Shown here: positions 24,444 through 45,659 of the stretch, piece by piece
How the letters are laid out: each line of letters opens with the position of its first letter
How positions within the stretch are numbered: the first letter of the stretch is position 1
Source: Eledone cirrhosa
Taxonomy: Eukaryota
Direction: 5' to 3'
Length of the DNA: 64,000 bases
NCBI GenBank assembly: GCA_964016885.1
Contig: OZ024743.1
Span: forward strand, 177,692,001 to 177,756,000
The notes under the pieces: model-generated
The model's input: the letters and a program-made list of their open reading frames with translations, nothing else
Told to the model about the DNA's origin: nothing
Database searches by the model: none
Made by a program: the position numbers and the translations under genes

Positions 24444-24835
24444 TGAGGATTCTTTTCTTTGTTTTGTGCCTCTCCTTTGTTCTGTCCTACGCCATCTTAT
24501 ATATATATATTTAATATAGAAAGGCTTCTACAGAACTAGAACTGTTTCATTCGCGAGTGTGTTTTTGCGAGTGTGTGGGAGTAAGAGCTTTATATGTGTG
24601 CATCTGTGAATGTGCTTATAGACACCTAACCAAAAGCACTGTTAGCTTAAGTGAACCATAAAAATGAGAGTGAACATGTCTATATAATTCTTTCTGCCTT
24701 TGATATTCTAAATATAGTTTTTTAAGAAATCCCTTTTCTTTAAACCCATCAACCAATGACCTCCACACATCCCAATTACCACCCTCTCCTACCACCAGAA
24801 AAAATATAAATATCACCATATTACTTGGACAACCA

Positions 24836-24884
24836 GCTTCCTAATGATTTCTCCCGAATGAAACAGTTCTAGTCTTGTAGAAGC
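24836..24884 (+). ncRNA. Type I hammerhead-like motif (family also at 24511-24555, 43226-43304, 57830-57876)
   Basis: gcttc CTAATGA TTTC tccc GAAT GAAA CAG ttctagtc TTG TA gaagc; the minus copy at 57872 retains CTGATGA. Confidence 0.65.
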
Positions 24885-25216
24885 CTTTCTATATTAAATA
24901 TTTATACTCTGCTTTGTATTGAGTACCTTACTTACTTTGGTTACTTATATATATATATATATATATATATCTATATATATATATATATATATATATATAC
25001 ATATATATATATATATATATATATATATATATATATATATATATATATATACACAGTATTTACGTATCGAGAGAGAGAAAAAAAAGGGGAGGATAGGTGA
25101 TACATATAGTTATTTGCCAAGTAGCGTGTGCCAAAGGTGCTCGATACTAGTGCCGGCAGTATTAAATATTCGAAGTGTTAATATTTAGTAGGCTAGAGAA
25201 TTAGCAGAGCGTAAGC

Positions 25217-25594
25217 ACGTGGGAAAATAAGACAACGGAGAATAGACCGTTAAAACATGTTTATTTAAAACAGCACCTACGTACGTTTCGCTCGGTTGGG
25301 CTCCTCAAGGGTATAAATAATCAAAAGTGTTCCTTACATTGCTCGGAAAGAGTTTTTGTTAAATCTACGTCAAGGTTCATTGCTCGCAAAAATAGCTTGT
25401 TTTGATTTTGCAGCAGGTCATTTGCGAGCAATGAACCTTGACGTAGATTTAACAAAAACTCTTTCCGAGCAATGTAAGGAACACTTTTGATTATTTATGC
25501 CCTTGAGAAGCCGAACCGGGCGAAATGTACGTAGGTTCTGTTTTAAATAAACATGTTTTAACGGTCCATTCTTCGATTTCTTACTTTCCCACGT
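25217..25594. mobile_element. 378-bp fold-back element with an HHR-like motif in each arm
   Basis: About 174-bp arms, 30-bp spacer; cc TTGAG(A/G)A GCCC aacc GGGC GAAA cgtacg TA ggt (consensus of both arms) at 25275-25312(-) and 25499-25536(+). Confidence 0.8.
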
Positions 25595-27111
25595 ATATAT
25601 ATATATATATATATATATATATATATATATATATGTGTGTATCTATATATATATATATATACACATATATATATATATGTGTGTATATATATATATATAT
25701 CTATATACATATATATATATATATATATATATATATATATATATATATATATATATATATATATAAGTAATATATATATAATATATTTATTATATATGTA
25801 ATATATATAAATATAATATATTTATTACTATTTCTATATATATATATATATATGTGTGTGTGTGTGTGTGTGTGTGTGTGTGTGTGTGTGTGTGTGTGTG
25901 TGTGTGTGCGTGCGTCTGCGTGTGTGTGTGCGTGCGTGCGTGTGTGTGTGTGTGTATGTGTGTGTGTGTAATTAAATCAAACTTTGCCTCAATTACGCTT
26001 GATAACGGAAGGATAGTTGAATTTATAACATTCTGGTAAACTGCATTATTTTTGAAACCACAACCAATATTCCAATGAAGTATTCCAGGGAGATGCAATA
26101 TATTCCTGGCAGAGTAATTTAATATATCTATGTATACTTGGTGTTGTTAAACAAAACTGTCCTCCACCTACGTTGGTCACGTAGTTATCTATACAACCAA
26201 CATAGCAGTAATCTTCCTTTATATGTTAACTCATTTCAGACATAAACACTACAACCTCACACACCCAACCTGGATCGTTCGTTCTCCGACAGGTTTGCCG
26301 TCGAGCCCGTAGCAGTGGATACTTCTGGTGTCCTTGGCCCTAGCACTACCTCTCTACTCACCACCATCAGCAGGGAGTTGGCTACCAGTAGCAGTGGAGT
26401 CTTCTTGTGAACGTGGCCCTAGGACCACTTCCCTTCTTACCACCATCCGTACGGAGTTGGCTACCCACAGGTGAGAGCCTAGCAAGCTGGAATGGATCTC
26501 CTAACGCGTCTCCCTCACCATCCTCCGGGGAAATTCCTTCTCTTTTCTGTCCGCCTGTTCCGCGGGTAGGCCAGCACGTGGGCCCCCATTTGCTTATAAT
26601 AGTGAGAGATTGGCAGAGCGAGAGGGCTGAAGGCAGTGAGTGAAAGAGAAAGAACATCAACCCTTATTTCTTATTTGCTTGTAGTAACAACCAGGAACAG
26701 CACCAACTGAATAAATACAAACGATAATGTCTACAACAACGACAGTAACAACAACAGCAACAACAATAACAACAATAACTATATGAAACGTCATTAGGAA
26801 CTGAATATTTCAACGTTCTCTCGGGTCTCGAATAATCGTCCCCCATCCCCTAACCTTTATAATTTTTCAGATTTTTTCCACCCCTGCTTTTGTTTCACCC
26901 ATACCCACATAGTAAATTATGCTAATCTATCACCTTAATAGAAATGAACCTCACCTGTCAGTCAGACCTTATATCACATTGGAGAGCCTTTGATTTATAT
27001 CGTAATGTAAGATCTCATTGTATGAATTTAAATATATATATTTTTCAGAAAATGTCGCTCTACATCGCTGAATACAATAAATGTAATCTGAGTTTTTCGA
27101 ATATTAATAAT

Positions 27112-42237: not shown

Positions 42238-42555
42238 TTAAAAAATGGCGTAGACATACAATACAACAGGAGGAACATAATAGTACCACTGATGATGTTG
42301 CGGATTTGCAACGAAAGAACTTTATTAGACTATATATATGTGTTTATATCTATATTATATCTGTATTTTTGACCGTTCGTCAGTCAATGATAAACATTGA
42401 GGACCAAATCAATTAACTTTGGAGATATAAAAGATACAGAAGCGAAAACCAGCCAAGCAGTGAGTGTGCTCTGTTATTATTTCTGGCAATATTATTACAA
42501 CAATATGACCCTCCCCAAGTATAACAATATTTATTTCGACACACGATTTCATGTC
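42238..42555 (+). mobile_element. Solo pLTR-like copy of 30505-30855 with HHR-like motif at 42282-42331
   Basis: CTGATGA T GTTGC ggattt GCAAC GAAA gaac ttta ttagact. Confidence 0.7.
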
Positions 42556-42719
42556 TGCAATGAAAGCTCAATTAGCCAAAGTAAGATGAAGAGAAGTTTT
42601 ATAAGCATTGTTTATTTTAAAGCCAATATTTGAACATAGTCTGTCTGTATGTTATACGTATGTTAAACAAGCGCCAGATGATAATTTAATTTTAACTTCT
42701 ATATTAAGTTCTCATTATT

Positions 42720-42905
42720 GTGGATTGGCAGTATCAGTGGAGGGTCGGACGCCATGCTTTCCAGCATAGTTACGTCCCTTTACGATCTGAGTTCAAATCC
42801 CGCCGAGGTTGACTTTGCCTTTCATCCTTACGGGGTCGATAAAATAAAGTACCAGTAATGCACTGGTGAAATGCTGGCCTTGTGCCAAAAGTAAAAACAA
42901 TTATT
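42720..42905 (+). mobile_element. tRNA-derived SINE (further copies at about 16417, 36885, 37490-37750, 41983, 49545)
   Basis: Full-length match to the 7040 family. Confidence 0.9.
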
Positions 42906-45659
42906 TTGTTACTATCTATTACTGCAATCTGTTTAACTACAAAATATACATTCTGTCTATTCTGGGATATTTAAATATAAATGGCATAATTTAACTATTC
43001 ATTAAATTCCATGCATTTTCCTCGTTAAATTGATTAATTTTACAGAAGTTTATGTAAAGATAATTAGTGGTTGAGATTTAGTTTTGTTCTCTTATGTTCA
43101 TAATTTAAGTCGTGAGTGGGGGTCTTACTTTAAACTTTCGGCTACACCTGCACACACACACACACACACACACACACACACACACACACACACACACATA
43201 CATATATATATATATATATATATATATAAATGGCTTCTACAGGACTAGAGATGTTTCATTCTTCCGAATGAAACAGTTCTAGTTATGTAGAAGCCATTTA
43301 TATGTTAAATATGTATACTCTGCTATGTATTGAGTACCTTACTGACTGTGGTTAACCCGGGATAAACATATATATATATATATATATATATACATACATA
43401 CATACATATGTATATATGTTATGTATGTTTAGTCGTGCGTGATCGACAACAGTTGATATGTGATGTCCTCAAGGAGTTGTAACCAGTTCACGGTTGTATT
43501 AGAGTGTGTCAGATCCTTATTTTCGGGTAGGCAGAGATCCGGGCACTCACTTACAATATAATCAGGAGTCAGTTCTGGCGTCCAAGTCAGGCAAGCTGCT
43601 GACTAATGCACCCCCTCTGCCACGTAGTGCATTAAATAGGGCCGCACATGAGTGTAGCCGATTCGGGGTCATCCACTCCCCCGGACGAGGTTAGCGCCTG
43701 GTAGGTGGGCCGTATTGGAGTTGATATTCAGTTGGGCTGGTAGAGATATCTGTGGCCATCTAGCTCTTCACCTCTGAAAGTATGGTGAAAACTGAATGTC
43801 GCAGCCTTGCTGCGAAAGGGCGGAGTGACATTAAGCGATGCTAGTCCAGTAACTAGGAATCCTGAGCCATGTCATGGAGCTGATGACTAGGGTCTATTGA
43901 GGCCTTGCTGTGTGATGTTCTCTATGAAGGTGCACAAGAGCAATGCCTGTGAGCAGAGGAAGATAATCAGTTGATCTAGGACGGCGACATCAAGTGGTGA
44001 GTCTTAAGATTGTGTTCCAAGATGTATCTAGCTTCTTATTATAGGAGCTGATGCCCCATACATGGGAGGCGTAATTTGCAGCTCCATAAATCAAGGTTAA
44101 GGCACTGGTTCGTAAGGGGAATCGGCCAGTACCTCGTGATGGCCCTGCCTAGCGGCGTAGAAAGTTGTTCACCGAGGACACCTTTGCACATAAGGACTCA
44201 GGGTGCTGCCTCTAGGCCAGATGTTGGTCTAATTTCACTTCGTTGTAGACCCTGGAAACTGATCACTGACTTCAGTCAGGCGAACGACAAAACCCTGAGA
44301 CAGCGGCGACGAGGTGCTGAATGGATGTGAATAAAAGTTGTGGTATTAACCTGAAGATAATTTACATTGTCTTTTCAAAACAACGTTACGAATCTCATGC
44401 ACACACTCTTGTTTAAACACGTTGAAACTTGTCCAAAAGTATTTTAAACAGTTAAAATCACTTCTTTGTATAATAACGGCTCTGATTTCATTGTATGCAC
44501 ATACGATGGATTACAACCGATTGGAATATCCTAGGTATATGTTTCCGGAAGTATTTCGGTAAAGAAATATTTTCATAGTAACTGTTATTTAATTATTAAA
44601 CAAAACATTTGAATTTGTAATTATTTTAACACAGAACTTTAATGGTGGAATGTTTTTGAGATTAATCTATTCAGTTGCACAAGTTAAAATCATGAAGCTC
44701 TTGTTTGAAATGACTGAAGTGTCAAAAATAGAAATAATAACAAAACAAAATTCCTTTAAAACCAGTCATTTAAGTGTCGCCATGAACCTAAAAATAAAAT
44801 TATGATAGAAATACTGGCAGTCATGCTTCCATTTTTAGTAAAGGGATTTTTCTACTGAAGCTAGCTCTATTATAGCTCGGAAAATATGCAACAAAAAAAA
44901 TATCAGATATATTATTGCAATTCTCCAGAGTACTCTAAAGTTCAATAACCAATATAACAAGTTTCACTTCAGCGCACACTACCTATAGATAGATATGTTG
45001 TGTTCTTAACACAAGATCCTAACTATCATGAATGTTTCTTTATTCATTATACCGTTCATTTGAATATTAATGCTGTCATAATTAGGTTTAGAAATATTAT
45101 TGGGATGCGAAAAAAAATAGACAGAGATTTTAGAATTGACCACAATATAACTGACGTTTTATTCCACAACACTTGATACTAATTAACCCTATTGTGATGT
45201 TACAAATCTATATACTTTTGTACAATTAATACATCCCAAAACAATTTAATAAATAGCTAAAATATACTATTTATATTTAAACATTTAAAGAACAGACATA
45301 ATACTTTTGGGGCATTTAAACTGATTACAAATATAAATAGTAACAATATTACAAGAAATAAATATAGAGGTTAAAATTAAATGTGATCTAGTTCTGAATT
45401 CACTCGCATTAAGCAGAAGGGAGATACTTCTTGTCTCTATTACAAGTAACTTTTCCAGAAGGTTTGTTGTTTAAGATTCTACGTGTTACAAAACAATCAC
45501 TCAGCCATTATCCTATTCTATGACAACTAAAGGATTATGTCTGACACATCTTGCTGTAACTGCTTGCTCCATCTATAGGCAAGCGTTGAGCGTCTCATTT
45601 TGTTATTCCCGATGTTGATTGGACAAGGAGGTTTCTATATATATAAATGAAATTCAACC

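Follow-up and report, generated by a model that had tools for sequence, protein, structure and literature searches.

Head-to-head insertions of Penelope-like elements in Eledone cirrhosa point to twin priming rather than fold-back at the ribozyme hairpin

How do the inverted copies of Penelope-like elements (PLEs) arise, and does the hammerhead ribozyme carried by these elements take part in it? The question is raised by a stretch of 64,000 nucleotides (nt) from Eledone cirrhosa (NCBI GenBank assembly GCA_964016885.1, contig OZ024743.1, forward-strand positions 177,692,001 to 177,756,000), here called the window, in which pseudo-long terminal repeats (pLTRs) of PLEs lie head to head with junctions in or next to a hammerhead. 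The origin of such inverted ends and of the tail found on one side only is described as unresolved in PMC8557442. A first-pass annotation of the window proposed that the inversions arise when reverse transcription snaps back, or changes template, at the ribozyme's stem II hairpin. Here we count junctions in the 3.0 Gb, (TA)n-rich genome of this animal and find that fold-back fails as a general rule. The inverted insertions probably form by twin priming from two start sites, with run-off at the 5′ ends of the RNA and head-to-head joining.

Masked self-comparison of the window located the repeats, which stand well above chance (E 3e-13 to 1e-37 within the window), and three families, A, B and C, were distinguished. 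Positions in A and B count from the first C of the hammerhead core, those in C from the G of GAAAC. Core, stems and GAAA of a type I hammerhead were found in all three, in agreement with the earlier identification of the elements as PLE pLTRs with hammerheads. The junctions singled out by the annotation are real. Residues 38985-39049 are a 100 % inverted copy of 41642-41706, and 41642, given as the equivalent of the breakpoint at 39049, is position +17 of a type I hammerhead, inside its loop II. The hairpin placed at 43226-43304 is an 83 % palindrome at 43229-43298, centred on ATTC-TTCC-GAAT (43258-43269), the stem II and loop II of the family seen at 24836; the inverted piece given as 24511-24555 spans 24510-24557 and indeed stops on the last base of that loop. 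Three palindromes said to be centred just upstream of C-GAAA-C (4401-4519, 27748-27840 and 51148-51257) have their centres 10-18 nt upstream of GAAAC, except that the forward arm at 27750 reads GAAGC. Across the genome, junctions are distributed non-uniformly along the pLTR. Concentration at stem II, the core of the first-pass claim, is borne out in C, whose junctions lie inside the stem II hairpin, and in a small peak at +16 to +20 in A; as a general breakpoint it fails, since the strict loop is not enriched in A, the main end zone of A lies upstream of the ribozyme and stem II is depleted of ends in B.

Family A insertions are built from two arms of fixed kinds. We sampled the family with a 32-nt motif that matches exactly at 492 places. 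The first 100 matches in the list fell into 77 clusters, and all of these were taken, together with the window and 29 other loci that had been preselected for one complete arm over -65 to +80, which biases against ends in that stretch. After removal of 4 duplicates from 62 head-to-head junctions, 58 remained, with both outer ends resolved in 46. Every one of these 46 insertions joins an arm running to about +85 (short) to an arm running to about +276 (tailed). In 30 of them the short arm outreaches the tailed arm on the 5′ side by more than 20 nt, which excludes that either was copied from the other; the reverse is seen in 13, and in 3 the arms end within 20 nt of each other. A second set of 110 loci, selected for ends at -56 to -9 and thus not independent evidence for that zone, added 57 new junction calls. 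Here all 27 resolved insertions were again short plus tailed, a count that excludes 10 tailed plus tailed calls judged to be TA-rich noise, and the short arm reached more than 20 nt further 5′ in 14. The arms within one insertion differ at 2.6 sites per 178 nt, compared with 5.0 between insertions (n = 18); both arms of an insertion derive from one source RNA.

The insertion that suggested fold-back belongs to the non-contained class. Its inverted tailed arm (38786-39049, minus strand) covers +17 to +276 and stops in loop II; the first-pass annotation had missed that this arm continues left to about 38786 with a tail of about 190 nt that is absent from the direct end. The direct short arm (39054-41710, plus strand) covers -2552 to +85 and is a 5′-truncated PLE with the C-terminal part of the open reading frame (ORF), including the CxCX5C linker and GIY-YIG, followed by the 3′ untranslated region (UTR). 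The arms are joined at 39049-39056 (plus strand) by a stutter, an 8-nt repeat of 39035-39042, whose last 3 nt, CTC, are common to the start of the other arm. The type I hammerhead of the direct arm (41621-41667, plus strand) has its core, CCGAAGA, at 41625-41631, stem II at 41633-41650 with the loop at 41640-41643, GAAA at 41652-41655 and a predicted cut at 41663/41664. An assembly artefact is unlikely because the arms of one hairpin carry different substitutions. Four contig sets aligned on 38830-39400 gave no junction-bridging piece among those listed, a result that carries no information in a collapsed repeat.

Where the arms of family A end was scored for 114 ends, the window's left out. 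The main zone, 12-60 nt upstream of the ribozyme (-60 to -12), holds 20; a further 14 lie at -310 to -261, 9 at -599 to -481, 4 at +76 to +100, 3 at +15 to +20 and 1 at +36 to +39. An upstream pLTR piece begins at -38 to -20 in three of the four long copies having one (L033, L066 and L089; not L079), which would fit a transcription start zone in A. The tailed arms that end near +85 could be explained by a second enzyme that stalled at the starting point of the first on the same RNA; tailed arms with 5′ ends at +78 to +96, beside the short-arm start, are found at L046, L047, L051, L060, L185 and L260. The 3′ UTR hot zones at -310 to -261 and about -510 (L012, L018, L041, L045, L065, L154) include near-perfect palindromic junctions, and no strong hairpin was found at -310 to -261. 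A cap-like G in A was considered and rejected: the apparent GGTATG signal is a subfamily variant.

Ends inside the ribozyme of A were collected with a genome-wide pattern for arms without bases 0-2 that retain +39 to +60. From 32 rows, 5 with indels or internal deletions and the window were removed, leaving 26 ends scored by eye against a hammerhead with a 7-bp stem II (+8 to +25), a loop at +15 to +18 and a predicted cut at +38/+39. Eight ends fall at +16 to +20 and nine at +36 to +39. The former make up 8 of the 17 ends within +3 to +35 (P = 0.036, corrected for an interval chosen after seeing the data), and the strict loop holds 3 of 26 vs 2.8 expected. By rough scaling, loop II ends amount to about 2-3 % of A arms. 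The peak at the cut site has P = 0.001, or P = 0.03 (6 of 23) when three palindromes are counted once, and none of its ends is preceded by G. These ends may record self-cleavage of the ribozyme. In the palindromes L181, L188 and L193, both arms end at or within 4 nt of the predicted cut, with A/T filler between them. L184 and L200 carry internal deletions within the hammerhead, one of which takes out the 5′ strand of stem II.

In family C the ends are far sharper. The hairpin pattern has 13,928 matches per strand, and all 50 hairpins listed end at -9 to -22 (by eye; the pattern is unable to show whole-loop hairpins). Among 36 local hairpins, for which gaps of up to 110 nt were allowed, none retains the natural loop, which in this family is about 40 nt long with an extra helix inside. 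Short and tailed arms are paired in 34 of the 36 and the arms share a subfamily base in 35; where one arm exceeds the other by at least 3 nt, the two directions stand at 10 vs 10. The modal end is -18 (16 of 72), the A of TTAGTC or TCAGTC, and ends mostly stop at or before this base, which thus forms a wall. The context resembles the initiator consensus, TCAKTY. A G stands at -19 in 13 of 25 truncated arms reaching A(-18), compared with none of the 100 intact copies listed of 6,550, and precedes only 2 of 12 ends at -17. Of 74 loci flanked by (TA)n, 11 have it as well (by eye), and there it can come from neither the target nor the template. In L1 insertions, capped 5′ ends are marked by an additional G (PMC11702581). 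We rejected a splice acceptor as the origin of the wall because the wall takes in the AG and the loop has no GT donor.

The window holds two such hairpins and a relative. At 4401-4545 (plus strand) the right arm begins AGTCC (4459) after a G that is absent from intact copies, and a minisatellite of 23-29-nt AT-rich units (4540-5260) follows directly. At 51148-51340 (plus strand) a short left arm reaching -12 faces a tailed right arm that starts at AGTCC (51200); beyond a (TA)n run, an extra inverted piece of C tail lies at 51385-51419 with (TA)n on either side. The palindrome with GAAGC belongs to a diverged, C-like hairpin with a tail at 27748-27953 (plus strand). Elsewhere in the genome, the C copies L073, L196, L115 and L206 either have their start at the predicted cut (GGGGTC) or have a junction running through stem III.

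Family B (6,727 hairpin matches per strand) again pairs short with tailed arms, in 33 of 37 local hairpins. Its positions were read by eye from 50 listed hairpins; 5′ ends derived by script cannot be trusted where a subfamily lacks a long reference copy (e.g. L201-L215). Among these hairpins, stem II (+7 to +18) holds 10-11 of 100 arm ends vs 44 expected if ends were uniform over -8 to +18. Most ends lie at -8 to +6 and none was seen past about -9, within a pattern that limits the gap to 60 nt. This wall falls on the 5′ end of stem I, where most ends stop. Stem II of B is weak and is missing from the minimum-energy fold of the 24836 copy. In several (TA)n-flanked copies AGATTCC or GGCTTCC is preceded by a G, in place of the C of long copies (by eye, not formally counted); some long copies have GGG at this position, which weakens the signal, and we regard a G signature in B as suggestive. 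At one locus in the window an inverted short arm (24510-24557, minus strand) extends up to the final base of loop II (+14), and a tailed arm (24621-24943, plus strand) carries the 3′ UTR and the hammerhead (core 24841-24847, stem II 24848-24859). The 63 nt between them (24558-24620) have no match to the four long copies tested. The hairpin at 43229-43368 (plus strand) consists of an inverted short arm, the junction through stem II and a tailed right arm, a junction type that is rare in B.

The arm pairing, the non-containment of arms, the distributions of ends and the untemplated G at the C wall are all direct observations, and twin priming would account for them as follows. DNA synthesis on the element RNA would be primed by both cut ends of a (TA)n target, one at each fixed start site. 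Each copy would run to the end of the RNA, that is the cap or the ribozyme cut, or until the enzyme dissociates; trimming and head-to-head joining of the two copies near the RNA 5′ end, via short microhomology or filler, would follow. The wall would be a capped transcription start in or just before the hammerhead in B and C, replaced by a broad zone in A. Stem II would matter occasionally, either by making the enzyme pause (about 2-3 % of A arms) or by providing two antisense copies with microhomology that is already in place. Since an RNA stem amounts to perfect microhomology between two such copies, a hairpin of the 43226 type may arise without fold-back, and single cases cannot separate the two routes. 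Purified Anolis PLE protein cuts and extends both target strands in vitro, starts at two internal sites bounding the tail and is predicted to form a dimer (PMC11167929), and the start site of Penelope lies within the pLTR (PMC2377424).

Several points weigh against this reading. The positions of caps and start sites would be those read off genomic arm ends alone, and in Anolis no RNA-seq reads ending at the hammerhead cut were found (PMC11167929). Family A lacks both a G signature and, in its -60 to -12 zone, a sharp wall, and twin priming leaves its hot zones at -310 to -261 and about -510 without explanation. The peaks inside the A ribozyme are small in number, the one at the cut site lies at the edge of the search anchor, and the 57 junctions of the second set include 1 end at loop II and 0 at the ribozyme cut. 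The 13 A insertions in which the tailed arm contains the short one are compatible with copying, one A row (C1317) is a true stem II-centred hairpin, and 1 of the 50 listed B hairpins is centred on loop II like 43226. In C, the CTG of the partner arm could supply the G in 7-8 of 13 local cases, and the wall lies 4 nt inside the predicted apical helix of stem II, which makes a structural stall conceivable.

The loop-centred cases speak for snap-back or template switching at stem II. The window junctions at 39049, 24557 and 43262 all lie at loop II, the A peak at +16 to +20 and the two hairpins just named add to them, the 43226 hairpin keeps the stem II loop, and self-priming at junction palindromes, a near idea, is proposed in PMC3846280. 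However, the insertions in which neither arm contains the other, that at 39049 among them, refute snap-back as a general rule, so that it survives only for a few % of hairpins centred on the loop. It is at odds with the depletion of stem II in B and its absence from the minimum-energy fold of the 24836 copy, as well as with the loss of the natural loop from every local C hairpin, and it leaves the fixed pairing of short with tailed arms and the extra G without explanation. As the source of the inversions we therefore judge it quite improbable. Somewhat easier to entertain, if still unlikely, is twin priming in which the enzyme stalls in the folded hammerhead (the apical helix of stem II in C, the end of stem I in B, loop II in A) and adds the G without a template. 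The C wall does lie in the 3′ strand of a predicted helix, the B wall is the 5′ end of stem I, and the 8-nt stutter at the window's loop II junction is of the kind expected after stalling. Yet nearly all C arms get past lower stem II and stem III, which are stronger, stem II is traversed in full by 6,550 C arms, and the G is common at -19, not before -17 ends, and absent at the predicted uncapped cut ends of A.

Palindromes are unstable, and hairpins could also have been shaped after insertion, long palindromes losing their centres by deletion until short hairpins remain; many ends do stop slightly before the wall, by a few bases, and show microhomology of 0-4 nt. Deletion, however, yields neither a fixed wall nor an untemplated G, copies with (TA)n immediately beside them begin at the identical position, and the young family A has asymmetric junctions kilobases apart, which makes this origin very improbable. 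Self-priming on an antisense transcript (Arkhipova 2013) is hardly credible here: it was proposed for head-to-head repeats with junction palindromes (PMC3846280), whereas most A junctions are non-palindromic (only the 3 of 46 noted above end within 20 nt) and the ends match landmarks of the sense strand, namely the initiator-like motif with its extra G and the hammerhead cut.

Twin priming may even be obligate in PLEs, with a protein dimer acting on one RNA at two fixed sites and the junctions forming a map of RNA 5′ ends; we see about even chances of this. If true, tens of thousands of hairpins would hold a record of the hammerhead cut in vivo, of the loop II pause and, with single-base precision, of the capped start, and transcription of C would start inside its own ribozyme, so that the front copy could not cleave.

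The assignment of the three families to PLEs differs in its grounds. Family A is, by its motifs, an endonuclease-containing (EN+) PLE, with reverse transcriptase (RT), then a C-terminal GIY-YIG, a pLTR tandem, an inverted 5′-truncated copy and a one-sided tail. Copies L079 and L089 have a tandem unit of 4,180 bp, a partial tandem forming the pLTRs, and L079 has an RT-like frame with YRDD followed downstream by a GIY-YIG frame, both interrupted by frameshifts. The call rests on motifs because the Pfam GIY-YIG match is weak (E 0.068, below the cut-off) and Pfam RT was not found; a sequence search of the RT against PDB gave 0 matches. ADKT in L079 and CNCRANRTC, CNLCILE and CQH in the window ORF are motifs of the Hydra clade of C-terminal EN+ PLEs. 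As described in PMC8557442, that clade shares with A the DKT, the CxCX5C linker, CxxC and CxH around E and N, the hammerhead and insertion into (TA)n; unlike it, A has RWR (L079) rather than RWK and a unit of 4,180 bp vs 'generally <3 kb', the likeness being one of motifs only. Long C copies show the full hammerhead fold, with a core of the U3-A8 type and about 40 nt, including the extra helix, enclosed by stem II, and run into PLE RT and endonuclease frames: that of L121 is 45 % identical to the A RT (E 8e-63), and L122 has a GIY-YIG-like frame with the Hydra-type CxCX5C linker. PLE hammerheads and their U3-A8 core were already known (PMC4209133). No RT or endonuclease frame was found for B within the 3-kb loci examined, and its hammerhead, tail and insertion form are what place it, provisionally, among PLEs. 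An Rfam scan of the window gave only microsatellite-driven microRNA matches below the gathering score and no hammerhead family among the 150 of 286 rows listed.

The insertions resemble those described for EN+ PLEs (PMC8557442, PMC3846280) in their head-to-head arms, one-ended tail, pLTR hammerhead, (TA)n targets and palindromic junctions, although the A tail of about 190 nt compares with 30-40 nt in described elements. In the available parts of those accounts the mechanism is left open between endonuclease resolution and antisense self-priming, whereas here junction counts for each family are tied to the G, the wall and the ribozyme cut. Poseidon of Anolis shares, in vitro, the two internal RT starts bounding the tail, the cutting and extension of both strands and the predicted dimer, but inversion and joining are not addressed in the main text of that paper (PMC11167929). 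Twin priming of L1 (PMC11702581) is similar in that both target ends prime, the inverted product is joined by microhomology and full-length 5′ ends carry an extra G. L1 has a variable second priming site and yields inversions as one outcome among several, while in the PLEs studied here both starts are fixed, the same 3′ stretch is covered twice and inversion is usual. A literature search over main texts without supplements, with few subscription journals, found no paper linking PLE junctions to caps or a ribozyme cut, and the available part of bioRxiv 10.64898/2026.07.22.740005 has no bearing on PLE junctions. The insertion form and the PLE hammerheads are already known. The junction counts supply a mechanism that the existing in vitro PLE system (PMC11167929) can test directly, the junctions predict transcription starts to the base, and the cut-site ends of A may be an indirect sign of PLE hammerhead cutting in vivo, which has been doubted.

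The window contains more large palindromes, at 25218-25593, 28717-29096, 34782-35387, 51452-51843, 61981-62244, 62645-63129, 16605-16912 and 50175-50252. Most adjoin (TA)n, and they are probably other families of the same kind. An abundant dispersed repeat of about 190-200 bp also occurs, in tandem and inverted arrangement, at 7021-7233, 11838-12050, 17718-18513, 19183-19388, 42717-42920, 58610-59271 and 60585-61097.

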